Assembly (NCBI GenBank): GCA_903917735.1 | Contig: CAIXBR010000047.1 | Span: 44,670-108,669, forward strand | Reading direction: 5' to 3' | Source: an uncultured Elusimicrobia bacterium | GTDB taxonomy: Bacteria > Elusimicrobiota > Elusimicrobia > Elusimicrobiales > UBA9959 | DNA length: 64,000 bases | Part shown: positions 2,959 through 52,366 of the stretch, one piece after another | Layout: the number at the start of each line of letters is the position of its first letter | How positions within the stretch are numbered: the first letter of the stretch is position 1 | Program-made: the position numbers and the translations under genes | The notes under the pieces: model-generated | What the model saw: the letters and a program-made list of their open reading frames with translations, nothing else | Told to the model about the DNA's origin: nothing | The model's database searches: none

Positions 2959-3043
2959 TTGACTATTCTCAAGTTCTGCTCAAGAATAAGGCCCGGGTTT
3001 GAAACAGCGACTTTTTGAAAACAAGTATTCGGAACAAGCGGGT

Positions 3044-6000
3044 ATGAACTGTAAATGGTCCGCTTTAGTTCTCTCCCTATTCCTGTGCCTGGCCCCTGAA
3101 GCCGGAGCGCTGGTAGTTTACACCGAAAACAGCGACACGCAGTTCAACGCCGGCTCCTACAACTCAACCTACATCACCGGCTCCGGCCTGAACGTGAACC
3201 TGGGCCTGGACTACTACGGCGACGCCGCCGGCTTTTCGGCCCCCGGCTCCAATGAATGGTTCAATTCCGCCTGGAAATACAGGCAACTCCTCACGATCAA
3301 TTCCTCGAACCCCTCGCCCCTGTCCAATTATTCCGTGGCAGTCACCATCAACACGCAGGACGCCATCTCCGGCGGCAGGATGAACGCCGACGGCTCGGAC
3401 ATACGCTTCACCACGGCGGCGGTCTCCGGCAGCGCTCCCTCCCTGCCCTACTACATAGAATCGGGCATCAATACCGCGGTCACGAAGATATGGGTAAACA
3501 TCCCCTCCATTACTGCCGGCGCGAACAACCTCTACCTTTACTCCGGCAACACCTCGGCCGCGGCGGTCTCGGGCATGGCCGGCACCTTCACGATGGGAGA
3601 CAATTTCAACGCCGCCAACGGCTCCGCCCCCAGCACCGCCACCTGGACCAACATCCAGTCGAACACGCCGAGCGCGGGCGCGCTCTCGGACATACAGTCC
3701 AACCGGCTGCGCCTGCTCTTCGGCAGCCCTCTCAACCTGCGCTACTTCGGTCTGCGCAGCGCCGCGATATATTCCATCGGGGCCGGCAAGCGCTACCACG
3801 CCGAAGTCAACGCCCGCGCCTCCGGCAGTGACTCCTGGTCTACCGTAACTCTGTGCCCCTCGTTCTACAACTACTCCGACGGCCAGTCGGCCTGGCTGCG
3901 TTTCTCCGTCAAGCACTCGGCGGGCGGGGCCACCTATACCGTCGACCGCAAGGACTACGGCACAAAGGCCACGCTGGCCTCCGGCGTACTGGGCGCGGGC
4001 TTCCACGGGGTGGATTTTTTAATAAGCGCCTCTTCCTTCAGCGTCTTGCTGGACGGCTCGCAGGTCTACGGCGGAACCAACGACTTGACCATCGGTAGCC
4101 CGTATATCTATCTGGAAGCATCCAGCGCCTCCTCATCTCTTGATGAATTCCTTTTCGACAACGTTTCCGTCCAGTCCTATTCGCCGCCGGACCCTACATA
4201 CACTTCCTCCGGCGCCGGACAGGGCCGCCGCTACCCTTCGGGGGAGTTCGTCTCGCAGACCGTGGACAGCGGCGCGCCCGGCACAAGATACCTTAGCTCC
4301 GACTGGGCAGCGATAACGCCTTCGAGCTCCTCCCTTTCCATGGAGATGCGCGCGAACGACACCGACGTAGCGCTGGGCACTTTCACGGCCGTCTCCAAGG
4401 GGGGAGACCCGGCGGTGTACGGACGCTACGCGCAGTACAGGATAAACCTGGCCACCCTGGACCCGCGCTATACGGCTACGGTGAGCAGCGTGGCCATTTC
4501 CTACGTCTCCCCGCCGCTGGCGCCCTCCGGCGCGGCCGGCGCTATGCTTTCAGCGACCTCGATAAAATGGAGCTGGACCGACAATTCCTCCGGCCAGTAC
4601 CAGGAAGACGGGTTCCGAGTGATGGACGCCACCGGCGTAATAAAGAGCGGCTCCCTGGCCTCAGGCTCCACCTATTGGATAGAGACCGGGCTGATCCCCA
4701 ACACGCAGTATTCCCGCCTTATAGCCGGCTATAATTCTTCCGGCCAGGGCGCCTCATCCGCGGCCTTCAGGTACACGCTTCCGGCCTCCCCCAGCGTGGG
4801 TTGCGACAAGTCCACCGGCACCTGGCTCTCCGGCACCCTGGCCTGCACCAACCTGGCCGGCTTCGGCAGCAACGGTGTAGCCTACTACCGCTACGTCTGG
4901 ACCCAGCTGGCCACTTACTCGGCCTGGAGCGGCTCGGAAACGCAGTGGCTCTCGGGCTCGCTTACAAAATCGGATTTCACTACCGGCAACTGGTACCTGC
5001 ACGTAAGATCGTATAACGGTGAGAACACCGCGGCGGATGCCCAGACCTACGGCCCCTACTGGTACGACAAGAACGCGCCTACAATAACGGGGTTCAGCCC
5101 TTCATCCAGCCCGTGGGTCAATACTTATGTAACGATAAACCCCTCAGTCGCGCTTGCCGACACCGGAGGCTCCAAGCTTTTCGCGGTACGCAACAATTGG
5201 ACCGGCAGCACCAGCCGCCCTTACTCGGGAGACTCCGGCTGGCAGGCCTGGGATTACTCCATTTCGGGCAACGACACTGCAAGCTCCAGCTTCATCAAGT
5301 CCAATGCCGGGCAATGGTACCTGCATATTGAAGTTCAGGACACCGCCGGCAACATAGGCTACTCTTACTCCGGCCCATACAAGATCGACAAGACGAACCC
5401 CTCCGGGAGCGTAGTAATAAACAACGCCAGCGACACCTATACCCCACGCAAAGAAGTGACGCTCTCACTGATTTATTCCGACTCGGAATCCGGGGTTAAA
5501 AGCCTCAGATACAAGAACCTTGGCGGCAACTGGTCCGCCTCCGAGCTGCCTCAGCCTACCACGGCATGGGCGCTTATTGACGGGGACGGCAACAAGCAGG
5601 TTTACCTGGAGGTGACGGATAACGCCGGCAACACCTATCAGACCGCCGACACCATAAACCTGAACTCACAGACTTCGCTTGTCGGTTCGGCCATAAGCGG
5701 TACGGCCAGCGGCGTAATGGGGGAACCGGCCGAGACTTTCAGCCCGCGCGCCGTCCTGAGCTGGACGCCTACCGGGGCGGTGCTGAGCGGCAAGACGCTG
5801 TCCTTCTATTTCAATGGCTCCACCAATACCGCGGTGACCGACTCCCAAGGCGCTGCCTCCTCCAGCTTCAATATCCCCACGGCTTCCGGGACCTATGTTT
5901 ACTCCGTCTCTTTTTCAACGGACGGCGTCTACTCGGTCAGCTCCTCCACCGGCGTGCTGACTGCGGCCCAGCGCGGGGTTTCCCTTATCACCGAGGACGT

Positions 6001-9000
6001 CAACGCCACCTCGGGAGTAAATTTTACCGCCAAAGCTACGCTCAGGGACTTCTTCACTAATGATCCGATAACCGGCTCCGCTATTACTTTCTCATTCGGG
6101 AGTTCCACAAAGACGGCGTTTACCAGCGCCGTAGGCGTGGCCACCGTCACCTTTACCGCCCCGCTGCTGGTAGGCATCTATTCTTACTCCGCCTCTTATG
6201 ACGGCAGCGCGGTATACGCGCCCAAGAGCGGCGCCAGCGGAGTGGGCGTAGGGCTGCGCGTAACCAACCTTAGTGTGCCCGGCGTTTCGGCCATGGCGCA
6301 GGCCGACTTCTACGCGCAGGCCACGCTGACGGACGGGGCCCTGCCGGTGCAGGGGTCTACAATAACCTTTGTCTTCCAGGGGTACACACAGACCGCCATC
6401 ACCAACGCCTCCGGCGTGGCGGTTTCTTCCTATACCGCCCCGGCCTCCTCCGGCACTTACTCCTATACCGCGGACTTCCCCGGTGACGGCACCTACGCGG
6501 CCAGCAGCGGCGCAGCGGCCCTGACCGTGAACCGGCGCCCGCTCAGCCTGGCCGGGGAAACCAGCCAGGGCTACGTGGACGCCACTTTCCTGGCGCACGC
6601 AAAACTCTACGACGGAATTACCGCGGACAGGGTGGCGGGGAAACAGATAGTTTTCGTTTTTGAGGGATCCTCGGCCGCTGTAACAACCGACTCCAACGGC
6701 GCGGCCTCCGCGTCGTTCAATTCCGGTTCCGCGCCGCGCGATTCCACCTATTACTCTTATTTTGCGGGAGATTCCGGCTACGCCTTCGCGGACTCCACGG
6801 CCACGGTCTCCATAGTTCGGCGCCTTACTTCGCTGGCGGCCTCGGACACCACCGCCCTGCTCAGTTCCACCTTCACGGCCATAGTCGCATTGAAGGACAC
6901 CTCTTTCGCCACCCCCGTACCAATATCCGGCAAGCTGATCAATTTCAGTTTCCTGGGCTCCACCCAGACAGCAATAACCAACGACTTGGGCGTGGCCTCG
7001 GTCACCTACCAGACCGGCCTCTCCACCGGCGCTTACGACTTCTACGCCTCTTTCGCCCAGGACGGCTCCTACCTGGCCGCCAACGACACCGGCACCGTCA
7101 CCATGACCAAGCGCACCGTAGTAGTTTCAGCTTACCCATGGTACGGCTTCGCTTTGGATTCGATAAAGCCGGTGGCCGACCTGAAGGACGGCGTGACCGG
7201 TGCCTATATCGGCGGACAGCCGATAACGTTCACCTACAACGGCACGCCGCAGTCCACCATCACCGTGGCCTCCGGCGGGACCATGGGCAAGGCCTACGCG
7301 GTTTACACCGGCACCGGCGTGGCGGGGACTTACAGCTATTCCGTGGATTTCCCCGGCAACTCTCTCTATTCGGCCAACAGCAACACCGCTTCCATAACGG
7401 TAAGCCAGCGTTCGGTGAGCCTGGCCGCGTTCCCGCAGACCGCCATCTGGAGCACCACCTTTACAGTTACGGCCGAGTTCCGCGACGGCACGACCAACGC
7501 CACGGTGAACGGCAAGCTGATAAAAATAACCTTCAGCACCGCCGCCACCAACTCGGTTACCGCTGGGGCCGGCGTTGCCACCTCCACCTTCACCGCCCCG
7601 GCCGGCACCGGCACCTTCAACTGGCTGGCCGAATTCGCCGGAGACCAGACTTACGCGGCGGCCAGCCAGACAGGGACGCTCACGGTTATCAGGCGCGCGC
7701 CCACCCTTTCGGCGATAGCCGCCAGCAAGTACGTGTGGGATAGCATAATCCTCAACGCTACTTTTATGGACGGGGACACTCCCATAGCCTCGATACCGCT
7801 ATCGTTCTCTTTCAACAGTTCCTCAAATACCCAGAACACGAACGGCAGCGGCCTGGCAACGTCCCTGGCTTTCTCCTCCATGAGCGCCCCGGGGAACTCC
7901 GGCTACACGGTGCAGTTCGCTGGCGACGCCAACTATTCAGCGCTGTCCGCCAGTTCCACCGTGACCGTGAGCGCCAGGCCCTCGAACATAAGCATCGGTC
8001 CTGTTTCTTCTATCGCCGGTTCTACAGTAACGCTGACGGCCACGCTTATAGACACGAACAACGGCACCAGGATCATGAGCGGCAAGCCCGTCAGCTTCAC
8101 GCTGCAGGGGTCCACGTACGGCGTTGCGGCGGTTACCAACGGCTCCGGAGTGGCCCAGGCGGTATTCATCTCCTCCACAAATACCGGCCCCTATACTTAT
8201 TCCGCCACCTTCTACGGCAACACCAACTACGCCGGCACCTCCAGCAGCAGCACCCTTACCGTTACGCTGCGCCCCTCGGTGCTCGAAATGGCCGATTATT
8301 ACCCGCCAGCCAGCAGCACTTTCACGGTTTCGGCCGTGCTAAAGGACTACACTACCGGCGCCACTATCTCCACACAGACCGTTTCCTTCCTCTTCATGAC
8401 CGTAGGGAAATCGGGAGTCACCAACGCGCTGGGTTCCGCCGCCACCTCTTACGTAACCATCTCCAGCACCATGAGCTACCCCATAAGCGCCTCTTACGCG
8501 GGGAACACGCTCTATTCCGCGGCCTCCATAAGCAAGATCGTCTACCCGGGCAGGCGCAACACCGCCCTGTATACCTCGGACATGAACACCGCGGTGGCGC
8601 TGGACACATTTACGGTAACCGCGCGGCTTAGCGACTACGACCTGGGCACCTACATCTACGGGGCCACAATAACCTTCTCGTTCAACAGCTCCAACTACAC
8701 CGCTTTTACAAATTCCACCGGCACGGCCAGCGCGGTCTTCACCGCCCCGGCCTCTACCGGCAGTTATACCTATAGCGCCGTATTCGCGGGAACAGCGCTC
8801 TATAACGGCACGACCAACACTTCCTCCGTGCTGGTGAACCGCCGCGCCATAACTATCAAGGCCAGCGACCTTACCTCCATCCCGGCCAACAGCTCCTTCA
8901 TCGCCTCGGCCCTGCTTACCGACGGGGTGATAACCGTTTCAACAAAGACGCTGACTTTCGTGTTCACTCCCGCCACCCCCAACACCAAAACCGCCGTTAC

Positions 9001-12000
9001 TAACGTCATCGGCGTCGCCTCCACCACCTTCCTGTCGCCGTCCAGCACAGGCACTTTCTCCTACTCGGTGTCTTTCGCGGACGGGGACCCGCTCTACAAA
9101 CCGGTTTCCGCCAGCGGCAGCGTGGGGGTAGTGCTTAAGAACACCGTGCTGACGGCGCTGGACGTAGCCGACGCGGTGGTAGGCGCCAGTTTCGTCAGCC
9201 AGGCCCAGCTGCTCGCCATAGAACCCGGCGGCAACGTGCCTGTGGCGTCGACCAAAACAGTAACTTTTTCATTCACCACCGGCACAGTTAACGCCATCAC
9301 GAACGTGGTGGCTGTGGCTACGGCGGGATTCGTAGCGCCTCCCACCGTAGGCTCTTACCAGTACACCGCCGTTTTCGCGGGCGACGGCATGTACGGCGCC
9401 AGCAGCAGTTCCGGCACTGTTACCGTAAAGCGCCGGCCCGTAATCTTCTCCGTTTCCGTCCCCGCCGGAGAGCCGTATACTCTTTCTACCATGACGGTTA
9501 AAGCCAACCTGGTAGACGGTAAAACGGGACAGCCTTTGCCGGATAGCCCGCTGGGCTCCGGGAATTTCCCATCGGTGAAGATCTATTTCAGCGTATCTAA
9601 CACGACTCACACGATACAAATGGACGCGCTTGGCGTCAGCAGCACCACTTTCTACGTCGGAATTGCTTCAGGGACATACAGGTATGCCGGCACTTTTGAC
9701 GGCAACGTAAGTTATAACGCGAGCGAGATCAATGATCAAACTGTAAGCACGGTAAAGATCAACCCCCGGCCCACTTCTCTTCAGCCCTTTTCCGGAGACG
9801 GGATGATGATGACCTGGGGAGTCTACACCTTCAGTGGCTTTAATGCAAGCGCGTATATCCTAGACAACTTGAACGGCAACAGCGGCATCTCGGGACTTAA
9901 TCTTGCTTTCCTCGCGCAGGGCACAACCATTTATGGCACTTCGCTGGTCGATCCTCCCGGCCGGGCTACCTCCGACACGGCGTTTCCCTCTATCGCAATT
10001 GCGGGCTCCTATCCGGTCCAGGTCACGTTTCCAGGGAACCAGACATATGCCCCGAGCGTTTTGCTTGGAGGAGTAGATCAGTCCCAGGGTAAACGGGGTT
10101 TTGTCCCGGTTTACCAGTCCCCCGCTAATATCGCGATGGATGCGATACAGGAATGCTTCCCTTCCGAAGACAAGGTTATCAGCGGCGTAGCGCACGATGG
10201 ATATCTGGGTGACAGGCCTAACGCCAGGCCCATACTTAAAGGTATGCAGGTTAGATACCGGATTTCGGACACTGCCTGCATCCATTATCCGGATAATTGT
10301 CCCTGGGGAACTTTGGGTGCGCCAAGCTACGGAAACATAAACGACTCTTATATAGCTACCGCCACGGTACATGCTCCTACAAATATTGGTTATTACCCCA
10401 TCGAAAGATGGTTCGCGACCACAGATTCGTTTTACTATTGGGAAGTAACCGAAGATAAGAGGATTTTAAGTGTAGGACGCAGACCTACCACTCTGGCTGC
10501 GGTAACGGATCCAGTGCTGGCCGGTGCGATGATGCCGATCACCATAAAAGTGAAACTGAGAAGCACCTCCCAGAGCGACATCGGCATAGACGGGAAGCAT
10601 GTAATTATCACATTCAACGGCGGCGCTCCGCAGGATATTGTAACGTCCGGAGGAGGCTTTGCGCAGTATATATTCACGGCTGGCCTGGTGCCAGGCGACT
10701 ACACATACACAGCCGCTTTTGCCGAAGACACAACATACAACGGCACTGTATTAAACCCGGTGGGCAATGTACATGTTCAAAAAAACAGTACCGCCCTTAC
10801 CGGAACTCCGGTAACCCTGGTTCCGGCCGGAAACAACTTTATAGCGAAAGCGACCTTAATGATTACTAATCCCGACCTGACGCAGCAGCCGGGTGTGGGG
10901 AGAAACATTAATTTCACGTTCCCGGGTGTGGCGGATCAAAACAATATCGTCACCAACGCCCAGGGCGTAGCCCAGGTAACCTTTGCCGCGCCCCTAACGG
11001 CGCAGAACACCAATTTTACCGCCACCCTTGTGGCGAATACTAATGACAACGGGGCCGTTACCGTTGCCCCCACTCATAATGTACAGGTGGTTCTGCGCAA
11101 TACCAGCCTGACTTCCGTGGCCGTTAACCCTGTATATATACTGGACAACTTCACTTCCACCGCCACCTTAGTGGACCTGGACGCCCCTCTAAACGTTCCT
11201 CCCCTGAACGTAGACGCCTGGATGACCGGGCGGACAATAAACTTTAATCTCAAGAGGGGGGGAACCGAAGGTGATACAGGCAACCAGGCCGCCACAACAG
11301 TCGCTTCACCTCTTGGCCGGGCAACCAAGGTGTTTACTTCCCCGCTTGAGTCCGGCAATAAATCTTACACGGCCTCTTTCGCCGCCACTTCCCTTTATGC
11401 CGCGGTCACGGCCGCGGACGCCGGGGTTACTGTGCTCAAGCGCACTACCGTCCTGTCGGCGGTGGAGCCCACAACTCCGACCAACACCATTTTTACGGCA
11501 ACGGTTACGCTGAAAGACAATACGCCCACCCAGGGCTCTCCCACTCTTATGGGCGTAAACATACACGTCCCGGTGAAATTCGTATACAACGGCGTCACCA
11601 ACTACGGGACCACGAACGATAACGGCGTAGCTACCGCCGTGTTCACCGCGCAGGCCGTGGCGAACAACTACACCTGCGACATAACCTATGAGGGGAACAC
11701 CACATACGCCACATCTAACCTGTCGTTGCCCGTGCATGTGATAAAAAGGCTTACTAGCATTTCTGCCGTTGATATTATTAACCAACCGGCCGGCGCGACG
11801 TTCCCCGCGAAGGCTACTTTAACGGATGACATCACCGGCGCCCCTATATCCGCCGCCCATATAGATTTCGTTTTCAATCTCGTTAACAGCGACTTCGGGA
11901 CCACCGATATTTCCGGCATAGCCACCACCATGTTCACCGCCCCGTTAAGCACCGGGAATTATAATTATACGGCCTGTTATCCCGGAGACAATACCTACGC

Positions 12001-15000: not shown

Positions 15001-18000
15001 CACGGTAACTATTAACGAGGTGCTGACCGCCACGGCTACCCTTTCCGATTACCTCGCCAACACCGTTGCGTCCAAGGCGCTGGTGTTCTACTTCAACGCC
15101 TCTTCGTTCACTGCCGTAACCAACACTCTGGGCGTGTCCTACTCCACCTACTCCGCCCCCGTTTCGTCAGGGGTCTACCAGATGCCGCTCTCCTTCGCCG
15201 GGGACGCCATATACGCCTCCACCAGCACCTATATCCCGGTGACGGTAAAACAGCGCATACCCTCCATAACACCGAACCCGGTCTCGGTACAGGCGCTGGA
15301 CATTTTCACCGCCACCGCAACCCTGACGGACGCGCGCGTCCCCGCGACCAAACTGTCGGGGCAAACCGTAATTTTCGAGTTCATCGTCAACCCCACAACT
15401 TTTACGAGTACCGGGGTCACGGACCCTAGCGGCGTGGCGACAGCCACTTTCACCGCCACAGCGCCCTCGGGGGCCTACCAGCTAAGGACGACTTTCTCCG
15501 GCAACGTCACCTATTCCTCGGGCTCCGCCTACGGGACCGTTACCGTGCTGGCCCGCCCCTCGAAACTGATGCAGGACAATTCCACGGCCCCCATAGGAGA
15601 GGTGTTTCGCACCACGGCCACCTTGGTGGACGCGCAGACCCTGACGCCCATTTCAAGCACGAAGACCATTACGTTCACCTACGGCGCCAGCTCCGCCGCC
15701 TTTACTGACGCCGGGGGCAAGGCCTCGGTCGCCTTTACCGCCCCGAACTCCTCCGGAACCTACCCGATGAGCTCCTTGTTCGCCGGGGACCTCACCTATG
15801 ACACGTCAGCTTCAACCGCCACGCTGACCGTTAACCGCAGGCCGCTCTCCCTGGCCGCGCCCGATATTTTGGGGATCATAGACGAGGTGTTCAAGGCCAC
15901 CGTTACGGTTACGGACACGCTGAACTCCATGCCGGTGTCCGGCAGGAACGCAGTTTTCATCTTCCAGGGCAGCACCTTCACGGTCCCCACCAACGGCAGC
16001 GGCGTGGCGGTGTCCACCTTCTTGGCGCCGTCCTCCAGCGGCACCTACTACGCGGCTATAAACTTTGATGACGGCGACGCCAGGTTCCTGCCTAACGGAA
16101 CCACTGCCCAGGTCCTGGTAGACCGCCGCCCCTCCGCGGTAAACCCGGACCCGGTCACAGCCAGGGCCGCCCAGGTCTTTACCGCCACTGCCTCCCTGGT
16201 CGACGTTCTCAACCCCGGCTTCAAAGTAGCCGGCGGGGAGCTGGCCTTTGTGTTCTCCGGCAGCACATCCACCGCCATCACCGGCCCCGACGGGGTTGCG
16301 GTATCCACTTTCATGGCGCCGCCCTCCAGCGGCACCGCGCAGATAAGCGTCTCTTTCTCCGGGAACAGCCGGTACAAAGCCAGCTCCGGCTCGGCTGCGG
16401 TGACCGTGCTGCGGCGCCTGTCCCTGCTGACAATAGCCCCGTTCTCCGTTAAAGCCATGGACGTTATCACCGCCACCGCCACGCTTACCGACAAGGTCAG
16501 CGGGGCCGTCGCTCCCGGCAGGCCGGTAACCTTCACTTTCTCCACCTCTTCCTTCGTCTCGGCCACCGACGCCGACGGCATAGCTGTTTCCACTTTCTCC
16601 GGGCCGGTTTCCTCCGGCACTTACCTGGTTAACGCCAACTTCGACGGGGATACTGTTTACGACGCCGCCACCGCTACCGGAACGATCACGGTAATACAGC
16701 GCCCGACCGCGATAGCGCTGCCCAACAGCTCGGCCTTCCCTTTTGAACAGCTCATCGCCACCGCCACGCTTACGGACGACGCCACGCTGGGCGCCATCCA
16801 GGGGCGCGGCCTGTCCTTCATCCTGAACGGGGTGTCAACTGAGGCCGTGACCAGCGGCGTAGGCGTGGCCACGGCGGCTTATACCCCGCCTTCCAATTTC
16901 GGCGGCTACACCATCTCCGCCACTTTCCCGGGGGACGCAAGCTACGCCTTCGCCAGTTCCAGCGGGACCGTCTCCGTGATGAGGCGGCCGACCGCCATCT
17001 CCGCCCTGAACAACGCCGCCGCCGCCATGGACGTGTTCACCGCCAGCGTTACGCTTTCGGACGTCAGGTTCTCCACCGCGGTGGCCGGCAAGGAAGTGAC
17101 CTTCACTTTCGAGGGCAAGTCCAGCACGGCCGCTACCGGCCCGGACGGCACAGCCTTCGCCTCGTTCTCCGCGCCCGTCTCTTCCGGAGTCTATTTCTAC
17201 CAGGCCCAGTTCGACGGGGACAGCGTCTACGACGTTTCCTCTTCAACCGGTGCGGTAGCCGTCTCGACCCGCCTGACGCGGATAGTAGTCAAGGACACTA
17301 ACGCCAACGTGGGCGAGCCGTTCAAACTGACGGCCCTGCTGATAGACCCGGCGAAAGAGGCGCTGCCCGGCTACGATGTCGCCAACGTGCAGATGAAGTT
17401 CGTTTTCAAGGACAGGAACAACATAAAGATAGATGAGGGCTTGGCGATGACCAACGAATTGGGCATAGCCACTATAACCTTCAGCGGACCGGGCTTGCCG
17501 GACGTCTATTACTATAGCGCCAGCTTCGCCGGCAACTACACCTACTCGGCTTCCAGCGCCACCGCCATGGTAAAGGTAGGCCTGCTTACCTCCCTGGTGG
17601 CTTTTGACGTTGAGACCATCGCCCTTGAGAATTTTCCTGTAAAAGCGAAACTCACCGACTACCTCTCCACCACGCTGGACGATAAAAAAGTGAGGTTCAG
17701 GTTCATAGGCGCGGCCGGCTCCGGCATGACCAACGCGGGGGGGGACTCAGGGATAGCGGCCTCCTCCTTTACCGCCCCGTCCTCTTCGGGAACCTACTTC
17801 TATAACGCCTATTTCGACGGGGACTCTATTTATTCGGCCAGCAACGCTACCGCCACCATCAACGTAAAACTAAGACCGGCCGCCATAGTCCCGTCTCCCG
17901 TTGCCACTTTCGCGTACAGCTCCTTCACCGCCACCGTACTGCTGACGAACATACTTTCCCCGTACGCCGCTATCGGCGGCAGGGCCGTGGATATCTCCTT

Positions 18001-21000
18001 CAACGGCGACACCGTCGCTACGGTCACCGACCCCGCCAGCGGGGCGGCCAGCGCGGTCTTCTTCATCCCGGTCTCTTCCGGTACTTACAAGTACTACGCC
18101 AGGTTTGCCGGGGACGACACTTACGACGCGGCTTCCAACACCGGCACGGTGACCGTGCAGCTCAGGTCCACCAGCATGCTGCCCTACAGCGTGACGAACC
18201 TCACGGCCAACAGCACCTTCACCGCCAGGGTAGAACTGAGGGACAACCTCAGCCTGCCCATAGAGGGACTTAGCGTGGACCTCCTGTTCGGGACGCAATT
18301 CGGCGTTGGCGCTACCAACGCGCAGGGCGCGGCGGAGGCGGTCTTCACCGCCCCGGCCTCCAGCGGCGTTTACACTTTCACCGGTAATTTCTACGGGGAC
18401 GAGCGCTACGCGGGCAGCACGGCCAACGGGAATGTTACGGTAGGGCCAAGGCCCACGCTGGTATTCACCTCCGCGGTCTCCTCCAAGCTGAACTCGCCGC
18501 TGGGCCTCTCGGCGAGGCTCGTGGACGTGGCCCAACAGACCGGCATCGGAGGACAGCTGCTCAGCTTCTACTTCGAAGGCTCCACGCTGTCGGCTGTAAC
18601 CGACAGCTTCGGCACCTCCACCGTCACTTTCAGTTCCCCGCTGTCTACCGGAGCCTACAGCTATGAGGCGTCATTTGTCAGCGACGGGATCACCTACATA
18701 AGCAGCTCCTCTTCCGCGCCCGTCACTATAGCCCTGAACCTTACCAAGCTGGACGCCAAGAGCGGCATCGGCATAAAGATCTACGAACCCCTGCCGGTAG
18801 AGGCCACTCTTAAGGATTCTTTAGGCCTTAATCTGCCCGGCCTGCCTGTTACTTTTAGCTTCGCGGGCAGCACCACCACCAGCATAACCAGCGAGGTCGG
18901 CACGGCCACCGCCGCCTTCGCCACCACGGGCCTGGCCTCCACCGGCACCTACAATTACACCGCCGACTATCCGGGCGACACGCTTTACGTGGCTTCTTCC
19001 GACACGTCCAACGTAGTCACCGTTTCCAGGCGCGACTCCCTGCTGCTGGCCCAAAACGCCACCACGCCTCCGGGCAAGTATTTCACGGCCGAAGCCAGGT
19101 TCTACGACAACGTGAACGGCAGTTACTTCATGGGCGCCCCGATTGCGGGTAAGACCGTTATTTTCGAGCTCCACAACTCCACCTTCACTACTATCCGGAG
19201 CGCCATTACGTCCGCGCTGGGAATTTCCACCTTTACCTTCACGGCCCCTGTCTCTACCGGCACTTTCCTGCTGACCGCCAGGTTCGCCGAAAGCGACCCG
19301 GTTTACCTGAGCGCGCTTTCTTCCTCCACGATCACCGTCCTTCTGGACGACGGCACCGGGGCGATAAAGACTAAATTAAAACTGGATCCCGCGAGCGCAT
19401 ATATAACCAAAGTATTCGTTGCCTCCGGCACACTCACGGCTACGGACGTCCCCGTTACGGCCAAGACAGTGCTGTTCGAATTCTTCAACGGTATCGCTAC
19501 CTATACCGCCGCCGGCTTCACCAACAGCATAGGCCTGGCTACAGCGGCCTTCACCGCACCGATAGCTTCCGGCACCTATAACATGACGGCCTCTTTCGCC
19601 GGCAACATGGACTTCTCGGCCGCCACCGGGACCTCCACCCTTACGGCTAACCGCTACCCCGACTCGCTCACGGCCCAGACCGCAGCCGCCTTAAGCGGCG
19701 AGGATTTCCCCGCCAAAGCGGTGCTGCGCGACGATCTTGCGCTTGCCGCAATCTCGGGCAAGACCGTTACATTCACCTTCTTTAACGGCTTCTCCACCGT
19801 TACCAGAACGGCGGTAACCAGTTCCACCGGCTCCGCCGAAACCACTTTCACTTCGCCGGCTACCCCCGGGAACTATTTCTATACGGCCAGCTTCGCCGGC
19901 GATGCTTCCTACGTGGGAAGCATGGACTCCGCCTCCATACTGATAGCCTCGAAAGGCTCCAGCACCTTCCTGATCGGCTATGAGGTGATGGTCGGCACCG
20001 GCGAGGTGTTCGCGGCCTCCGCCACCCTTACCTCCAAGGGCCTGCCTGTCCAGGGCAAGGCTATCACGCTGTCTTTCCAGGGCCTCCTGCGCGTCTCCAC
20101 CACCAACGCGGACGGCCTGGCATCCTCCACCTTCACCGCGCCGGCCTCCAGCGGAACCATCGCCTACCAGGCCTCCTTCGGCGGCGATCCGCTTTACAAT
20201 GCCACCCTGGCCACGGCCCCGGTCTCGGTGATACTCCGGGTCCAGCCAGAACAGCCGTCCTTCAAGGCGCAAGTCACCTCCACGTCGGTAACGCTGGCCT
20301 GGACGCCCGTCACCACGGACCAGAACCACCAAGTGACCGGCTACGAGGTCAACACGGCCGCCGAGCTCAGGCCCCAGACCTGGAACACCCAGGGCTTCGT
20401 TTCCAGCACCGCCACGACCCTCGGCTACACCTGTACCGTGGATTCCAACACGGCTACTTATCTTAAAATAACCACAAAGCTGGGGGACAACCAGGAAAGC
20501 CCCACTTCGCTTATCGTGGAGGTCCCGAGCAAGGCGGACGACCCGGCGCGCGTGCCTAACTACTACTACATGAACGCGGGGACAAGCGCCAACGACTGGG
20601 CCGCCTGGGTCAAAATTCCGGGCCAGGTCATGAACAAGGTCTCCTCCGCCACTTTCACTATGGACGTGGCAAAGGTGAACAACCCGGCCTTCCTGGCCGC
20701 CTACACCGTAACGGCGTCCGGAGACCAGAAGACCCTGTCCTCGGACCTGAAGACGGCCGACAGGAAAGGCGTCAGGCTCACAATTTCCTATCCCAAGTCC
20801 GGGACCGGGGTTTCCGCCGCTTCCGGCCAGCTTGCCATGTACTGGTTCAACGGCGTGGAATGGGTGAAACTGGGCGGGCAGATAGACGTGCTGACGGGAG
20901 AAGTTTACACCTACTCGCGTGTGCTGGGCCAGTTCGCCGTGAAAGCGGCCCCGATGGCGTCCTCCTTCACGCTTACGAAGGTGGCCCCTCGCATCTTCAG

Positions 21001-21253
21001 TCCCGACGAAGCCTCCACCAACGTCAACCGCGCCAGGTTCTATTTCGAGAACCCGGACCTCGGAGAAGTCACTATAAGGATATTCGACATTACGGGCTCC
21101 CTTGTGCGCAGGAACCTGGAATCCGAAGGCGCCAACATAATGTACTGGAACGGCAAGGACCAGAGCGGAGTTCTGGTGAAGGGCGGAGTATACATTTATC
21201 AGATAGAGGCCGCAGACAAGGTGCTCACCGGCACCGTGGTGGTGGCAAAATGA
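3044..21253 (+). CDS. Giant secreted surface protein (~6,069 aa): signal peptide, DUF2341 + LamG/concanavalin-like head, FN3, ~49 tandem Ig-like repeats, FN3, pre-CTD beta-sandwich, T9SS/FlgD-Ig-type C-terminal sorting domain
   Basis: One uninterrupted ORF (track 2999-21253, TTG). I prefer the ATG at 3044, which gives a Sec signal MNCKWSALVLSLFLCLAPEAGA. DUF2341-like motif WKYRQLLTINSS...DGSDIRFT...LPYYIES...TKIWVNIPSI...NNLYLYSGN. FN3-like SIKWSWTDNSSGQYQEDGFRV...PNTQYSRLIAGYN. The repeat motif recurs ~49 times. The C-terminus (IRIFDITGSLVRRNL...MYWNGKDQSGVLVKGGVYIYQIEA...GTVVVAK) fits the Por_Secre_tail/FlgD_ig pattern. Confidence 0.9.
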   Translation: MNCKWSALVLSLFLCLAPEAGALVVYTENSDTQFNAGSYNSTYITGSGLNVNLGLDYYGDAAGFSAPGSNEWFNSAWKYRQLLTINSSNPSPLSNYSVAVTINTQDAISGGRMNADGSDIRFTTAAVSGSAPSLPYYIESGINTAVTKIWVNIPSITAGANNLYLYSGNTSAAAVSGMAGTFTMGDNFNAANGSAPSTATWTNIQSNTPSAGALSDIQSNRLRLLFGSPLNLRYFGLRSAAIYSIGAGKRYHAEVNARASGSDSWSTVTLCPSFYNYSDGQSAWLRFSVKHSAGGATYTVDRKDYGTKATLASGVLGAGFHGVDFLISASSFSVLLDGSQVYGGTNDLTIGSPYIYLEASSASSSLDEFLFDNVSVQSYSPPDPTYTSSGAGQGRRYPSGEFVSQTVDSGAPGTRYLSSDWAAITPSSSSLSMEMRANDTDVALGTFTAVSKGGDPAVYGRYAQYRINLATLDPRYTATVSSVAISYVSPPLAPSGAAGAMLSATSIKWSWTDNSSGQYQEDGFRVMDATGVIKSGSLASGSTYWIETGLIPNTQYSRLIAGYNSSGQGASSAAFRYTLPASPSVGCDKSTGTWLSGTLACTNLAGFGSNGVAYYRYVWTQLATYSAWSGSETQWLSGSLTKSDFTTGNWYLHVRSYNGENTAADAQTYGPYWYDKNAPTITGFSPSSSPWVNTYVTINPSVALADTGGSKLFAVRNNWTGSTSRPYSGDSGWQAWDYSISGNDTASSSFIKSNAGQWYLHIEVQDTAGNIGYSYSGPYKIDKTNPSGSVVINNASDTYTPRKEVTLSLIYSDSESGVKSLRYKNLGGNWSASELPQPTTAWALIDGDGNKQVYLEVTDNAGNTYQTADTINLNSQTSLVGSAISGTASGVMGEPAETFSPRAVLSWTPTGAVLSGKTLSFYFNGSTNTAVTDSQGAASSSFNIPTASGTYVYSVSFSTDGVYSVSSSTGVLTAAQRGVSLITEDVNATSGVNFTAKATLRDFFTNDPITGSAITFSFGSSTKTAFTSAVGVATVTFTAPLLVGIYSYSASYDGSAVYAPKSGASGVGVGLRVTNLSVPGVSAMAQADFYAQATLTDGALPVQGSTITFVFQGYTQTAITNASGVAVSSYTAPASSGTYSYTADFPGDGTYAASSGAAALTVNRRPLSLAGETSQGYVDATFLAHAKLYDGITADRVAGKQIVFVFEGSSAAVTTDSNGAASASFNSGSAPRDSTYYSYFAGDSGYAFADSTATVSIVRRLTSLAASDTTALLSSTFTAIVALKDTSFATPVPISGKLINFSFLGSTQTAITNDLGVASVTYQTGLSTGAYDFYASFAQDGSYLAANDTGTVTMTKRTVVVSAYPWYGFALDSIKPVADLKDGVTGAYIGGQPITFTYNGTPQSTITVASGGTMGKAYAVYTGTGVAGTYSYSVDFPGNSLYSANSNTASITVSQRSVSLAAFPQTAIWSTTFTVTAEFRDGTTNATVNGKLIKITFSTAATNSVTAGAGVATSTFTAPAGTGTFNWLAEFAGDQTYAAASQTGTLTVIRRAPTLSAIAASKYVWDSIILNATFMDGDTPIASIPLSFSFNSSSNTQNTNGSGLATSLAFSSMSAPGNSGYTVQFAGDANYSALSASSTVTVSARPSNISIGPVSSIAGSTVTLTATLIDTNNGTRIMSGKPVSFTLQGSTYGVAAVTNGSGVAQAVFISSTNTGPYTYSATFYGNTNYAGTSSSSTLTVTLRPSVLEMADYYPPASSTFTVSAVLKDYTTGATISTQTVSFLFMTVGKSGVTNALGSAATSYVTISSTMSYPISASYAGNTLYSAASISKIVYPGRRNTALYTSDMNTAVALDTFTVTARLSDYDLGTYIYGATITFSFNSSNYTAFTNSTGTASAVFTAPASTGSYTYSAVFAGTALYNGTTNTSSVLVNRRAITIKASDLTSIPANSSFIASALLTDGVITVSTKTLTFVFTPATPNTKTAVTNVIGVASTTFLSPSSTGTFSYSVSFADGDPLYKPVSASGSVGVVLKNTVLTALDVADAVVGASFVSQAQLLAIEPGGNVPVASTKTVTFSFTTGTVNAITNVVAVATAGFVAPPTVGSYQYTAVFAGDGMYGASSSSGTVTVKRRPVIFSVSVPAGEPYTLSTMTVKANLVDGKTGQPLPDSPLGSGNFPSVKIYFSVSNTTHTIQMDALGVSSTTFYVGIASGTYRYAGTFDGNVSYNASEINDQTVSTVKINPRPTSLQPFSGDGMMMTWGVYTFSGFNASAYILDNLNGNSGISGLNLAFLAQGTTIYGTSLVDPPGRATSDTAFPSIAIAGSYPVQVTFPGNQTYAPSVLLGGVDQSQGKRGFVPVYQSPANIAMDAIQECFPSEDKVISGVAHDGYLGDRPNARPILKGMQVRYRISDTACIHYPDNCPWGTLGAPSYGNINDSYIATATVHAPTNIGYYPIERWFATTDSFYYWEVTEDKRILSVGRRPTTLAAVTDPVLAGAMMPITIKVKLRSTSQSDIGIDGKHVIITFNGGAPQDIVTSGGGFAQYIFTAGLVPGDYTYTAAFAEDTTYNGTVLNPVGNVHVQKNSTALTGTPVTLVPAGNNFIAKATLMITNPDLTQQPGVGRNINFTFPGVADQNNIVTNAQGVAQVTFAAPLTAQNTNFTATLVANTNDNGAVTVAPTHNVQVVLRNTSLTSVAVNPVYILDNFTSTATLVDLDAPLNVPPLNVDAWMTGRTINFNLKRGGTEGDTGNQAATTVASPLGRATKVFTSPLESGNKSYTASFAATSLYAAVTAADAGVTVLKRTTVLSAVEPTTPTNTIFTATVTLKDNTPTQGSPTLMGVNIHVPVKFVYNGVTNYGTTNDNGVATAVFTAQAVANNYTCDITYEGNTTYATSNLSLPVHVIKRLTSISAVDIINQPAGATFPAKATLTDDITGAPISAAHIDFVFNLVNSDFGTTDISGIATTMFTAPLSTGNYNYTACYPGDNTYAGKCDNTNTVQVNVASTTLSIPNAGILVNNLFSPVATLKGKESGVGVSGKPVRFTYAGVLKGTPLTAAGGTVAQAFTPISTGTFELDVNFDGDTAFYASVGTATIVVSTRVSGITMTNVITTVQAVFNATATLTDLSPVPAIVSGRRVNFLFNGVTISSATTDSVGVATTSFTAPPGFGSYPITATFPGDPIYGPSNTATASVTVSKRATQLTVLGNPATTALQVFTATATLKWAGGDVAGKVVSFTYHGVKLANTTEGSGKYYVDFDAGASSGPWQIDAAFEDGADAAYETSSGTNTITVGRRNCVVIPNNISMSVYDTFNATVTFKDVASSSTPAGKYPKVAFTPTWIASTGTATATNGAGIAYFQNQTAPASSGNYKVESWFPGDATYFPSISSTATVKVLQRPTQLSLADVPNAMIDQIFTATATLKNDINFLDNRYVLFTFETRTFNAKTTAGIAVATFTVTLSTGASRIDAIFNEDASYSASNASSATVTAAMRPTFLSTAATTVVADKDFIATATLRDLPVGFPSASLNVATQTISFLFNGTTKTAATNALGIATVTFTANVSTGSWPVTVTYAGSWKYVGSSAATIPLTVIQRATSLVSSGNVASPALDVFTDTVTLQDLDNLPLDAQSLRFVFSGSTFTKVTAGGGIAASTFSAPASYGTYYVNVYFDGNTKYSSSTVAITLTDAQRLTAIALSSPSVKAWDFFKTTATITDLNTPSLYKVSGATVTFNFGAPWGASTSALTDSVGLATAPYQSTGTAGNYTLTGTFAGNATYASTTTVLTFYVAKRSGYVTGVNISTRVFDLFTASATFYDSITSAPVSGRPIKFWLQGTVSTPSAPTNAFGVAAVTFTAPASSGTYNLSIWSDGITDLTYNQSSVYISSVTLARRDSSIALTGPTNAIIASTFTPTGIMYDSVNSAAIPSKTISFLFQNTTVPVTTNGSGLASTGYTANLSSGPYPLQASFAGDASYNPSVSTKSVNMLSYPTLLAAPTITVTINEVLTATATLSDYLANTVASKALVFYFNASSFTAVTNTLGVSYSTYSAPVSSGVYQMPLSFAGDAIYASTSTYIPVTVKQRIPSITPNPVSVQALDIFTATATLTDARVPATKLSGQTVIFEFIVNPTTFTSTGVTDPSGVATATFTATAPSGAYQLRTTFSGNVTYSSGSAYGTVTVLARPSKLMQDNSTAPIGEVFRTTATLVDAQTLTPISSTKTITFTYGASSAAFTDAGGKASVAFTAPNSSGTYPMSSLFAGDLTYDTSASTATLTVNRRPLSLAAPDILGIIDEVFKATVTVTDTLNSMPVSGRNAVFIFQGSTFTVPTNGSGVAVSTFLAPSSSGTYYAAINFDDGDARFLPNGTTAQVLVDRRPSAVNPDPVTARAAQVFTATASLVDVLNPGFKVAGGELAFVFSGSTSTAITGPDGVAVSTFMAPPSSGTAQISVSFSGNSRYKASSGSAAVTVLRRLSLLTIAPFSVKAMDVITATATLTDKVSGAVAPGRPVTFTFSTSSFVSATDADGIAVSTFSGPVSSGTYLVNANFDGDTVYDAATATGTITVIQRPTAIALPNSSAFPFEQLIATATLTDDATLGAIQGRGLSFILNGVSTEAVTSGVGVATAAYTPPSNFGGYTISATFPGDASYAFASSSGTVSVMRRPTAISALNNAAAAMDVFTASVTLSDVRFSTAVAGKEVTFTFEGKSSTAATGPDGTAFASFSAPVSSGVYFYQAQFDGDSVYDVSSSTGAVAVSTRLTRIVVKDTNANVGEPFKLTALLIDPAKEALPGYDVANVQMKFVFKDRNNIKIDEGLAMTNELGIATITFSGPGLPDVYYYSASFAGNYTYSASSATAMVKVGLLTSLVAFDVETIALENFPVKAKLTDYLSTTLDDKKVRFRFIGAAGSGMTNAGGDSGIAASSFTAPSSSGTYFYNAYFDGDSIYSASNATATINVKLRPAAIVPSPVATFAYSSFTATVLLTNILSPYAAIGGRAVDISFNGDTVATVTDPASGAASAVFFIPVSSGTYKYYARFAGDDTYDAASNTGTVTVQLRSTSMLPYSVTNLTANSTFTARVELRDNLSLPIEGLSVDLLFGTQFGVGATNAQGAAEAVFTAPASSGVYTFTGNFYGDERYAGSTANGNVTVGPRPTLVFTSAVSSKLNSPLGLSARLVDVAQQTGIGGQLLSFYFEGSTLSAVTDSFGTSTVTFSSPLSTGAYSYEASFVSDGITYISSSSSAPVTIALNLTKLDAKSGIGIKIYEPLPVEATLKDSLGLNLPGLPVTFSFAGSTTTSITSEVGTATAAFATTGLASTGTYNYTADYPGDTLYVASSDTSNVVTVSRRDSLLLAQNATTPPGKYFTAEARFYDNVNGSYFMGAPIAGKTVIFELHNSTFTTIRSAITSALGISTFTFTAPVSTGTFLLTARFAESDPVYLSALSSSTITVLLDDGTGAIKTKLKLDPASAYITKVFVASGTLTATDVPVTAKTVLFEFFNGIATYTAAGFTNSIGLATAAFTAPIASGTYNMTASFAGNMDFSAATGTSTLTANRYPDSLTAQTAAALSGEDFPAKAVLRDDLALAAISGKTVTFTFFNGFSTVTRTAVTSSTGSAETTFTSPATPGNYFYTASFAGDASYVGSMDSASILIASKGSSTFLIGYEVMVGTGEVFAASATLTSKGLPVQGKAITLSFQGLLRVSTTNADGLASSTFTAPASSGTIAYQASFGGDPLYNATLATAPVSVILRVQPEQPSFKAQVTSTSVTLAWTPVTTDQNHQVTGYEVNTAAELRPQTWNTQGFVSSTATTLGYTCTVDSNTATYLKITTKLGDNQESPTSLIVEVPSKADDPARVPNYYYMNAGTSANDWAAWVKIPGQVMNKVSSATFTMDVAKVNNPAFLAAYTVTASGDQKTLSSDLKTADRKGVRLTISYPKSGTGVSAASGQLAMYWFNGVEWVKLGGQIDVLTGEVYTYSRVLGQFAVKAAPMASSFTLTKVAPRIFSPDEASTNVNRARFYFENPDLGEVTIRIFDITGSLVRRNLESEGANIMYWNGKDQSGVLVKGGVYIYQIEAADKVLTGTVVVAK
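5650..20230 (+). repeat. Array of ~49 diverged tandem Ig-like coding repeats (~95-100 aa, ~290 nt each) inside the giant CDS
   Basis: I counted 49 occurrences of the recurring motif [ST]-F-[TS]-A-P-x3-G-x-Y-x-Y-x-A-x-F-x-G-[DN]-x-x-Y-x-x-S, each followed by T-V-x-x-R-[PR]. Examples: TVTFTAPLLVGIYSYSASYDGSAVYA, AVSTFLAPSSSGTYYAAINF. The repeats are diverged at nucleotide level (not identical DNA repeats). Confidence 0.8.
20966..21250 (+). other. CTD (T9SS-type / FlgD Ig-like sorting domain) of the giant protein
   Basis: FTLTKVAPRIFSPDEASTNVNRARFYFENPDLGEVTIRIFDITGSLVRRNLESEGANIMYWNGKDQSGVLVKGGVYIYQIEAADKVLTGTVVVAK. Same pattern as the C-termini at 29385-29681 and 42588-42851. Confidence 0.7.
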
Positions 21254-21281: not shown

Positions 21282-21629
21282 ATGAGGAACATCGTTTCTA
21301 CTTTCTGTCTTTCCGCCCTTCTGGCGGCCCCCTTGTCGGCGGCTTTCACGCTGACTACGGTGTCTCCGCGCATCTTCAGCCCCAACGCCGGCAACAATTT
21401 AGTGAACCGCGCGTGGTTCCACTACACTAACCCCGACTCCTGCGAAGTCACCATCAGGATCTTCGCCCTCAACGGCTCGCTGGTGCGCCGGAATCTAGAT
21501 TACGAAGCCGGCATCATGTACTGGAACGGCAAGGACCAGAACGGCGCAATGGTAAAGGGCGGTATATATATTTATCAGATAGAGGCCGCAGACAAGGTGC
21601 TCACCGGCACCGTGGTGGTAGCAAAATGA
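21282..21629 (+). CDS. Cargo-less minigene: Sec signal peptide fused directly to a T9SS-type CTD (115 aa)
   Basis: The signal peptide MRNIVSTFCLSALLAAPLSAA resembles that of the downstream PorV-like gene (MKNILTAFCLSALLGAPARAA). The rest is ~3/4 identical by eye to the giant protein CTD. The last 60 nt (21570-21629) match 21194-21253 with a single mismatch. The stop overlaps the next start (ATGA). Confidence 0.75.
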   Translation: MRNIVSTFCLSALLAAPLSAAFTLTTVSPRIFSPNAGNNLVNRAWFHYTNPDSCEVTIRIFALNGSLVRRNLDYEAGIMYWNGKDQNGAMVKGGIYIYQIEAADKVLTGTVVVAK

Positions 21630-42854: not shown

Positions 42855-42855
42855 T

Positions 42856-49494: not shown

Positions 49495-49526
49495 GCGGAG
49501 CGCCTGCAGAGGCTGACCCTTCCGAT

Positions 49527-52365: not shown

Positions 52366-52366
52366 C

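Follow-up and report, generated by a model that had tools for sequence, protein, structure and literature searches.

The locus described here raises the question whether a giant gene encodes a surface protein that stands on its own or one component of a larger machine of the cell envelope. The window, i.e. the whole stretch of 64,000 nucleotides that was analysed, stems from an uncultured Elusimicrobia bacterium (GTDB lineage Bacteria; Elusimicrobiota; Elusimicrobia; Elusimicrobiales; UBA9959; GenBank assembly GCA_903917735.1, contig CAIXBR010000047.1, positions 44,670 to 108,669). It carries an 18.2-kb gene for which a preliminary description, made from the letters alone, had proposed the design of a long fibrillar adhesin. 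The gene is real, intact across many species and the first gene of a conserved module, which in the window continues with a stand-alone copy of the giant protein's C-terminal domain (CTD), an outer membrane barrel fused to tetratricopeptide repeats (TPR), a protein resembling a fusion of flagellar FliF and FliG, and stator proteins of the MotA and MotB types. We read the product as a CTD-anchored surface fibril which would sit on a dedicated barrel and would be coupled to a proton-driven motor, and give this reading a probability of roughly 0.5.

The giant gene is intact in the window and in other species

The window is free of N bases. In its list of open reading frames (ORFs), a single open frame, 2999..21253 on the plus strand, contains the giant gene:

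3044..21253, plus strand: giant coding sequence, 6,069 amino acids (aa) plus stop (ORF listing, orthologues, public gene call)

Counted from the ATG at position 3044, the ORF comprises 18,210 nt, i.e. 6,069 codons and the stop codon, with zero internal stops; at the base composition of the window a stop-free run of 6,069 codons would arise by chance with a probability of about 1e-84. This ATG is the likely start, because the N-termini of the orthologues align from residue 1 and a public gene call of 6,069 residues agrees. Thr, Ala, Ser and Gly together make up 46% of the protein, which has few charged residues and 13 Cys. One contig in the public data (L001) agrees with the window at 100% identity across 21.6 kb; it probably derives from the same data and thus provides no independent support for the assembly.

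A scan at the DNA level, with one genome per species, yielded 14 loci from Elusimicrobia in which the head is complete, at 41-68% identity, and all except one of these orthologues are stop-free over the fetched DNA, for up to about 4,200 codons. Gene calls on long contigs amount to 6,046 aa (STC_50), 6,022 aa (ANAN16 / GWB2_63_16) and 617+1+5,376 aa (CA_2019_TPIn_50), and full-length orthologues measure 5,994-6,069 aa. The uninterrupted frame emphasised in the preliminary description is therefore borne out by the window and by 13 of the 14 orthologues, and the frame data do not point to the pseudogene or collapsed assembly that it had named as the alternative.

A single in-frame nonsense codon was observed in the head modules of three orthologous lineages, which are 66-77% identical to one another, at sites equivalent to aa ~618-725 of the window protein:

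L003/L017, ~11852-11854: TAG for Trp
L006, ~5700-5702: TAG for Ser
L005, ~11998-12000: TAA for Tyr

Past the nonsense codon the frame remains open, for 5,376 codons in L003, and the alleles suggest a very recent or polymorphic loss of function. Note that the clustering of the sites is no more than weakly significant and that the protein search behind two of them was biased to short products. Its word index missed the query's own 6,069-aa protein as well as the 5,376-aa product of L003, which makes orthologues falsely look truncated. That the orthologues are split genes or share a recurrent readthrough site was not upheld, given their uninterrupted frames in the DNA scan; the enrichment of short heads is largely an ascertainment bias. 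On a further contig (L007, coverage ~3x), homology is lost at head residue 495 (~6151) and unrelated sequence on the opposite strand follows, which is probably due to a chimeric low-coverage assembly or an insertion.

The giant gene opens a module that recurs in divergent lineages

Downstream of the giant gene, six genes follow on the same strand:

21282..21629, plus strand: 115-aa protein, signal peptide and stand-alone CTD paralogue (alignment to the giant CTD)
21626..23287, plus strand: outer membrane barrel of the PorP/PorV family (aa ~22-305), charged linker and periplasmic TPR region; its start overlaps the preceding stop
23366..24817, plus strand: FliF/FliG-like fusion, 483 aa (FliG_C, 1LKV, PF08345, transmembrane segments)
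24876..25634, plus strand: MotA/PomA-type stator A, matched end to end by MotA 9LU9 (1e-37) and PomA 8BRD (6e-30)
25650..26390, plus strand: MotB-type stator B 1 with plug, OmpA-like domain and a transmembrane Asp in YADFITSL (families, transmembrane analysis)
26365..27051, plus strand: MotB-type stator B 2 with plug, OmpA domain and a transmembrane Asp in YVDMMTTL (families, transmembrane analysis)

From the giant gene to motB2 the genes overlap or are tightly spaced, and terminator-like sites are no more frequent than expected by chance, a result compatible with co-transcription without proving it. The small copy and the giant CTD share 74% identity along 95 aa, and in their final 58 nt the two genes are one base apart. 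In four genomes, the giant CTD and its small copy share lineage-specific terminal motifs within the genome, which indicates concerted evolution or a common partner. The small gene was found in L088, L090, L093, L096, L104 and L111, and its product may plug the barrel, compete for it, or serve as its chaperone or regulator. The barrel-TPR protein scores 37.5 bits against the PorV_fam model (cut-off 90) and 18.4 against the PorP family (cut-off 90.55), with weak matches to PorP_SprF and TraF_2 and a strong one to TPR. It is paralogous to the bona fide PorV-family proteins encoded in the window, and NCBI calls some of its orthologues PorP/SprF.

The FliF/FliG-like protein has an N-terminal signal or transmembrane segment, a periplasmic domain of ~140 aa, a transmembrane helix at aa ~175-195, a Gly-rich linker and a FliG-MC region. 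Its cytoplasmic part matches FliG-MC of 1LKV with E 2e-8 as a single sequence and 1e-36 as a family profile. The periplasmic domain scores 17.9 bits against PF08345 (YscJ_FliF_C), rising to 30.6 bits for the STC_50 orthologue and 23.3 bits, as a full-length match, for L095, and also matches the ring-building protein SpoIIIAG (1.6e-3). A canonical FliG it is not: FliG_N is absent, the length is 483 instead of ~330 aa and TIGR00207 gives 45 vs 226.7. An exhaustive HMMER search returned 116 cluster representatives of this family at E <= 1e-10, many of them full-length, and all members that carry an organism name belong to the Elusimicrobiota. A metagenome scan with the FliG-like alignment returned 14 loci, mainly from close relatives, and added little diversity. 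The MotA and MotB neighbours reach ~150 bits with NCBIfam models, below the equivalog cut-offs of 237-394. No other flagellar genes (rod, hook, export-gate, FliM, FliN) were found within the 64-kb window. A Zorya anti-phage system was also considered for these genes and ruled out; the likeness of MotB to ZorB is generic, MotA has no ZorA match, and there is no ZorC or ZorD.

The order of a cargo gene with class-I CTD, usually a small CTD gene, a barrel-TPR gene and a FliF/FliG-like gene recurs in six divergent lineages, namely that of the window and those listed below, and a MotA gene and two MotB genes follow this core in five of the six, the exception being L096. In every recurring locus the cargo, with sizes from 835 to over 5,300 aa, ends in a class-I CTD preceded by the shared pre-CTD end.

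L093 (with L104): barrel 43% identical to that of the window; cargo over 5,300 aa; window order unchanged. L105 is a near-identical fragment of L093 which begins inside the FliF/FliG-like gene
L095: barrel 30% identical to that of the window; cargo 835 aa; without small CTD ORF
L096: barrel 37% identical; cargo cut at the contig end; PorV-family gene after the FliF/FliG-like gene; no MotAB on the contig
L097/L099: FliG-like proteins 78-79% identical; cargo over 2,500 aa; extra genes ahead of MotA in L097
L111: FliG-like protein 40% identical; cargo cut at the contig end; window order unchanged

In close relatives the synteny reaches housekeeping genes (for an AMP-binding enzyme and the CCA-adding enzyme) and therefore proves little on its own. 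The distant loci keep the core order, with different outer flanks and a barrel that is just 30-43% identical. Our literature search (FliG-like, MotAB, PorP in Elusimicrobia) found no description of the module, which appears to be undescribed. The preliminary description had not noted these downstream genes, and they alter the probable way in which the giant protein works.

Two of the recurring loci show peculiarities. In L096 (4263-7934), the FliF/FliG-like gene runs past FliG_C into a transmembrane helix, an extracytoplasmic region of ~600 aa and a type-A-like CTD, 1,223 aa in total, and is either a real fusion of a rotor-like and a secreted protein or the result of a missed stop. The L095 version likewise terminates in a transmembrane helix. 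At the position of the small CTD gene, L095 (3737-4390) has a called ORF of 217 aa made of reiterated 'FLAKISNASQK(S/W)SLFLGV' units without CTD homology, which looks more like a repetitive DNA element than a gene.

A lectin-fold head on a stalk of 49 Ig-like domains

The giant protein is organised as follows, all on the plus strand:

3044..3109: Sec-type signal peptide, aa 1-22, ending in APEAGA and followed by LVVY (judged by eye; N-terminus conserved among orthologues)
3389..3649: DUF2341, aa 116-202 (Pfam PF10102, E 7e-14 to 1.5e-14, above cut-off)
3650..4198: concanavalin-A (ConA)-like jelly-roll ('LamG-like'), aa ~203-385, ending in LDEFLFDNVSV (AlphaFold2 and Foldseek)
4514..4813: weak FN3-like domain, aa ~491-590 (Pfam fn3, 20 bits vs cut-off 25)
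4814..5713: three small beta modules with a (W/Y)YLH(V/I)..(D/N)..GN motif, aa 591-890 (by eye; NCBIfam)
5714..20281: 49 immunoglobulin (Ig)-like repeats (Big_3_5), aa 891-5746, median period 97 aa (self-built hidden Markov model, Pfam, AlphaFold2)
9467..11788: fast-evolving block of repeats R14-R20, with an atypical R15/R16 region (aa 2258-2494) and a Cys-containing insert (orthologue identity, GC, sequence)
20246..20533: FN3 domain, aa ~5735-5830 (Pfam fn3, 28.1 bits vs cut-off 25)
20534..20968: pre-CTD region of ~145 aa, aa 5831-5975 (no family match)
20969..21250: class-I CTD, predicted sorting and anchoring domain, aa 5976-6069 (...VTIRIFD...GVYIYQIEAADKVLTGTVVVAK; sub-threshold matches to models for type IX secretion systems, T9SS)

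All elements named in the preliminary description were thus found at their coordinates, LamG at the level of the fold superfamily only. Read by eye, the N-terminus (MNCKWSALVLSLFLCLAPEAGA) resembles a signal peptide. DUF2341 is matched with 52-55 bits against a cut-off of 23.4, and its profile is covered almost entirely; in the literature the domain is mentioned just as an appendage of ExbB-like proteins. The adjoining segment had been described as LamG-like. AlphaFold2 modelled it with a predicted local distance difference test score (pLDDT) of 73-86, and against the PDB Foldseek returned GH16 glucanases, galectins and CBM66 (E 3e-6 to 5e-5, target template-modelling score 0.42-0.62), moderate evidence that aa ~203-385 belong to the ConA-like lectin/glucanase superfamily, which includes LamG. 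At the sequence level the LamG assignment did not hold: Pfam models gave no match on the jelly-roll region, neither LamG nor Laminin_G_3 appeared on aa 201-400 even at E <= 1, and a family profile found no LamG among PDB sequences. The model of the whole head was poor (pLDDT 43) except in two segments, and no inference was drawn from it for aa 386-890. An enzymatic head of the GH16 type was ruled out, as the catalytic ExDxxE motif is absent from aa 1-900.

The remaining elements of the head, also part of the earlier reading, are present as well, the first FN3 below cut-off: fn3 matches aa ~500-575, and a contactin FN3 matches the family profile with E 0.011. Among the WY(L)H motif modules, one has a sub-threshold NCBIfam match to an OmpL47-type barrel (27 bits vs 40), and Big_13 matches weakly. 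The DUF2341/ConA-like head is conserved among the orthologues. With its lectin-type fold it is a candidate adhesive domain; no ligand is known for either the DUF2341 or the ConA-like part.

The stalk, announced as ~49 diverged repeats of ~97 aa, proved to consist of exactly 49 contiguous repeats, each detected with E <= 2e-14 by a model trained on the protein's own repeats, in keeping with the tandem stalk domains of fibrillar adhesins. Big_3_5 (PF16640) is matched with 184-257 bits per 2,100-aa segment (cut-off 35.5; E 1e-55 to 1e-77), with 24 stretches above threshold. With the 49 repeats as their own alignment, AlphaFold2 predicted a seven-strand beta-sandwich at a pLDDT of 96.9. The repeat profile had no match among PDB sequences, and fold comparison was used instead; its best matches (template-modelling score 0.6-0.66) are complement MG domains, CbhA FN3-like modules, intimin D00-D0 and the bacterial Ig-like (BIg) domain of SiiE (2YN3). 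The repeats are thus predicted to fold as Ig-like domains, as the preliminary description had presupposed.

Pairwise protein identity among the 49 repeats averages 29% and reaches at most 46%, and neighbours are no more similar than distant repeats (lag-1 0.306 vs 0.294 overall). Copies are 60-75% alike in their DNA, and Tandem Repeats Finder reported no tandem DNA array in the stalk. Because of this divergence, the missing similarity between neighbours and the absence of an array, collapse or recent amplification is excluded. The orthologue of STC_50, rebuilt from two overlapping loci and 58% identical in the head, also has 49 repeats, and for 45 of the 49 window repeats the best match is the positional counterpart, with 57% identity on the diagonal vs 34% off it. 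This positional orthology means that the common ancestor already had an array of 49 units, the length of which has stayed constant since, and the earlier view of an old, not recently amplified stalk is strongly supported. Length or position-specific features of the stalk are therefore under selection. An Ig-like domain is ~3.5-4.5 nm long, and at this length the 49 repeats would span ~170-220 nm.

One block departs from this regularity. R14-R20 are 0.33-0.46 identical to their positional orthologues in STC_50 as opposed to 0.57 on average, equivalent to about twofold faster evolution, and GC drops to 0.535 vs ~0.60. A degenerate repeat at aa 2363-2494 carries an insert with 3 of the 13 Cys of the giant protein. 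Possible roles of the block are those of a hinge, of an epitope that varies or of a second site for binding.

At the C-terminal end the expected FN3, pre-CTD and CTD are present, the CTD below curated thresholds. The end of the pre-CTD (WVKLGG...) is conserved in the cargos of L093, L095, L096 and L111, and the class-I CTD is common to the cargos of every related locus. Scores for the giant CTD are 26.7 vs 27 for FlgD_ig, 20.9 vs 27 for CHU_C, 18.5 vs 27 for Por_Secre_tail and 21.8 vs 23 for TIGR04183. The domain is accordingly related to the type A CTD (TIGR04183/PF18962) and stays below its curated cut-offs; of the type B models (TIGR04131/CHU_C PF13585), CHU_C falls short and TIGR04131 is absent among the matches. 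Taken together, the sequence fits the layout of a fibrillar adhesin with a distal N-terminal head and a C-terminal anchor, in which the head would bind and the CTD would hold the protein at the surface.

Other genes of the window

Further features on the plus strand surround the module:

147-884: OmpR-type DNA-binding protein
894-2384: HAMP-HisKA kinase
2400-2762: single receiver
27150-27527: single-domain receiver, after motB2
27543-29684: SBBP beta-propeller protein with class-II (type-A-like) CTD
29691-30866: PorV/PorQ-family barrel
30847-31458: TPR/LysM protein (family matches)

The upstream two-component trio lies directly 5' of the giant gene in close orthologues only, and the receiver domain of its OmpR-type member is weak or absent; together with the receiver behind motB2, these genes are possible dedicated regulators of the cluster. 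The genes at 27150..31458 are retained together in close relatives, and some of them in L105 and L111 as well. Besides the giant protein the window encodes two CTD cargos, the beta-propeller protein (27543-29684) and a 1,945-aa Kelch/FN3 protein (37017-42854), with the CTD motif YPNP...KGKFSIIR. Each of these type-A-like cargos directly precedes a PorV/PorQ-family gene (27543-30866 and 37017-43902; 165 and 156 bits vs 90), so that every CTD cargo of this genome seems to have a barrel of its own. Apart from the two PorV/PorQ-family genes, no core T9SS genes were seen in the window.

Two observations concern genes at a greater distance. At 48505-55998 lies a Bat-like operon (Bacteroides aerotolerance type) with genes for a MoxR AAA ATPase, DUF58, an ORF without assignment, VWA, VWA-TPR and BatD. 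A fusion of transaldolase and phosphoglucose isomerase (57478-60663, 1,061 aa) has a long extra C-terminal region with a Thr/Asn-rich low-complexity stretch.

Comparison with known systems

By analogy, the giant protein would work most like SprB, the gliding protein of Flavobacterium johnsoniae. In Bacteroidota, type B CTD cargos bind a PorP-like protein encoded beside them, and SprB with SprF is one such pair (PMC9143113); the proton motor GldLM serves SprB (PMC8986121, PMC9870892). Common to both systems are a giant filament (6,497 aa in SprB vs 6,069 aa here), a C-terminal sorting domain, predicted in our case, and an adjacent barrel gene, which is weakly PorP-like here and which in the case of SprB encodes the PorP-family barrel that binds and anchors the filament. 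SprB depends on a proton-driven motor of the 5:2 type, and here genes of a putative proton motor adjoin (PMC9143113, PMC9870892, PMC8986121). The differences are considerable: The stalk consists of Big_3_5 domains and not of SprB repeats, a family that is absent from the Pfam matches, and the CTD lies below type A and type B thresholds. The barrel is fused to TPR, MotA, MotB and the FliF/FliG-like protein take the place of GldL and GldM, a stand-alone CTD copy is present, and the organism belongs to the Elusimicrobiota instead of the Bacteroidota. The giant protein is thus not a member of the SprB family.

In a second example, the PG1035-PorP-PorE system of the Porphyromonas gingivalis T9SS, the type B CTD of the cargo binds a PorP-like barrel whose gene lies close by (PMC9143113, PMC12773672), and the gene order suggests a similar arrangement here. 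Its periplasmic partner combines TPR with OmpA_C-like peptidoglycan-binding domains, whereas here TPR is fused to the barrel, OmpA-like domains reside on the two MotB paralogues and the cargo is about ten times larger.

SiiE comprises 5,559 aa with 53 BIg domains. Encoded on Salmonella SPI-4, this giant non-fimbrial adhesin with its ~50 bacterial Ig-like repeats is clustered with the MotAB-like proton channel SiiAB, which serves it (PMC12204202). In contrast to the protein studied here, SiiE is a substrate of a type I secretion system (T1SS), with no CTD, PorP barrel or FliG-like protein. Because its T1SS signal is C-terminal and its retention region N-terminal, its orientation on the cell is opposite.

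With fibrillar adhesins in general (Monzon and Bateman; PMC8286594, PMC9210967) the giant protein shares a tandem Ig-like stalk, a terminal non-stalk domain, a putative anchoring signal and very large size. Fibrillar adhesins are described as fast-evolving with variable repeat number, whereas here number and order are fixed across species, and the DUF2341/ConA-like head is only putatively adhesive.

The likeness to the flagellar core of FliF-FliG and MotA5B2 comprises a MotA that aligns end to end with solved flagellar MotA and PomA, MotB proteins with plug, Asp and OmpA domain, and a partner with the topology of a FliF-FliG fusion. It does not extend to FliG_N, which is absent, to the charges of the torque helix and the MotA loop, which are not conserved, or to the rod, hook, export-gate, FliM and FliN genes, none of which lies nearby. 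The cluster has a CTD cargo and its barrel on one side and additional pairs of CTD and PorV genes on the other. To our knowledge, no flagella are known in cultured Elusimicrobium minutum.

A possible mechanism and its alternatives

If the giant protein is a CTD-anchored fibril on a dedicated, motor-coupled barrel, the sequence of events may be pictured as follows. After Sec-dependent export, the class-I CTD would direct the protein to a PorP/PorV-like barrel, the product of the second gene downstream, and would remain bound there, as in SprB-SprF and PG1035-PorP, so that the C-terminus would lie at the membrane and the lectin-like head ~200 nm away from it. The stand-alone CTD copy would probably occupy or regulate the same site of the barrel. 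More speculatively, the periplasmic TPR of the barrel would join an inner-membrane assembly of MotA, MotB and the FliF/FliG-like protein, the latter with its ring-building motif in the periplasm and FliG-MC in the cytoplasm, and proton flow could be used for export, tensioning or movement of the fibril. Going one step further, we tentatively consider, from gene order only, an undescribed envelope machine of Elusimicrobiota in which MotA-MotB act on a mini rotor of the FliF/FliG-like type and, via the TPR barrel, export, tension or move a ~200-nm adhesin. Such a machine might, just as tentatively, employ the flagellar rotor-stator pair outside the flagellum or be a relic of the pair's ancestry, and represent a third solution beside GldLM/T9SS-SprB and SiiAB/T1SS-SiiE.

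Several points weigh against a motor-coupled fibril. The giant CTD and the adjacent barrel stay under every curated T9SS threshold, and the proposed links from CTD to barrel and from barrel to motor come from gene order alone. The positions of R281, D288, D289 and R297 of E. coli FliG align to P, A, A and V, and in MotA the equivalents of R90 and E98 are shifted, with 'RRE...LALE' reading 'HQR...ALPE'. Because these canonical charges are not conserved, the torque interface must differ or have co-evolved. On the L096 contig no MotAB follow the FliG-like gene, and L097 has intervening genes. Adhesion by the DUF2341/ConA-like head is putative, and a true flagellum or a full T9SS may be encoded elsewhere in the genome, the gene content of which is known for 64 kb.

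One alternative would be a passive fibrillar adhesin or spacer that is anchored by its CTD, perhaps to the adjacent barrel. The FliF/FliG-like and MotAB genes would then just lie nearby and serve another purpose, for instance in maintaining the envelope or in a flagellar motor of remnant or variant form. A fibrillar adhesin needs no more than the domain architecture; phylogenetic inertia accounts for part of the synteny, as the syntenic housekeeping genes in close relatives indicate, and the non-conserved FliG and MotA charges fit as well. We nevertheless regard this explanation as doubtful, since the linkage holds in L093, L095 and L111 despite 30-43% barrel identity and different outer flanks, and since the FliG-like protein, with its transmembrane helix, periplasmic domain and lack of FliG_N, is non-canonical and has no other flagellar gene beside it in 64 kb. 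Alternatively, the motor could move the barrel-anchored protein along the surface as a functional analogue of SprB, the cell gliding when the head sticks to a substrate. A filamentous protein close to SprB in size (PMC9870892), next to a PorP-like gene and a proton motor as in SprB/SprF/GldLM, would suit this idea, as would the two-component and receiver genes that flank the cluster. It is unlikely all the same: neither GldJ-like track proteins nor a GldK/N-like ring were seen, the protein matches neither SprB repeats nor the model of the type B CTD, and the OmpA domains of MotB anchor to peptidoglycan, which implies a static stator.

The constancy of the stalk allows still another interpretation, namely a non-adhesive element of fixed length, which might set a distance as a 'ruler', form a fibrillar coat for protection or keep cells apart from one another. 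Repeat number (49), order and total length (5,994-6,069 aa) are conserved at ~60% identity, unlike in variable adhesins, and no ligand is known for DUF2341 or the ConA-like head. A conserved distal head of lectin fold is, however, what a binding tip is expected to look like, and a fixed length equally suits an adhesin that needs a defined reach, which makes a purely structural role distinctly improbable in our view. Least plausible by far, and already largely refuted, is a pseudogene or assembly artefact, whether by collapsed or chimeric repeats or by decay of the gene. It could invoke the in-frame stops in L003/L017, L005 and L006, the break of L007 in the head and the lack of independence of L001. 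Against it stand the stop-free frame of the window, repeats too diverged to collapse, open frames in 13 of 14 species and positional orthology with STC_50 for 45 of 49 repeats.

Significance

Taken alone, the ORF would be one more giant Ig-repeat surface protein; what sets it apart is the fixed array of 49 units, the stand-alone CTD paralogue and the association with a motor. That species with ~57% identity in the stalk have retained all 49 domains and their order is unusual for fibrillar adhesins. The module joins a cargo/barrel system of T9SS-like character to flagellar-type stators and a FliF/FliG-like fusion. If it forms one machine, it would bear on the way in which proton-motive force reaches the outer membrane, on T9SS-like sorting outside the Bacteroidota and on the evolutionary ties between flagellar rotor-stator parts and other machines of the envelope. 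For the organisms themselves, which form an uncultured lineage, the giant fibril and its module are a candidate basis of powered adhesion or of motility on surfaces.

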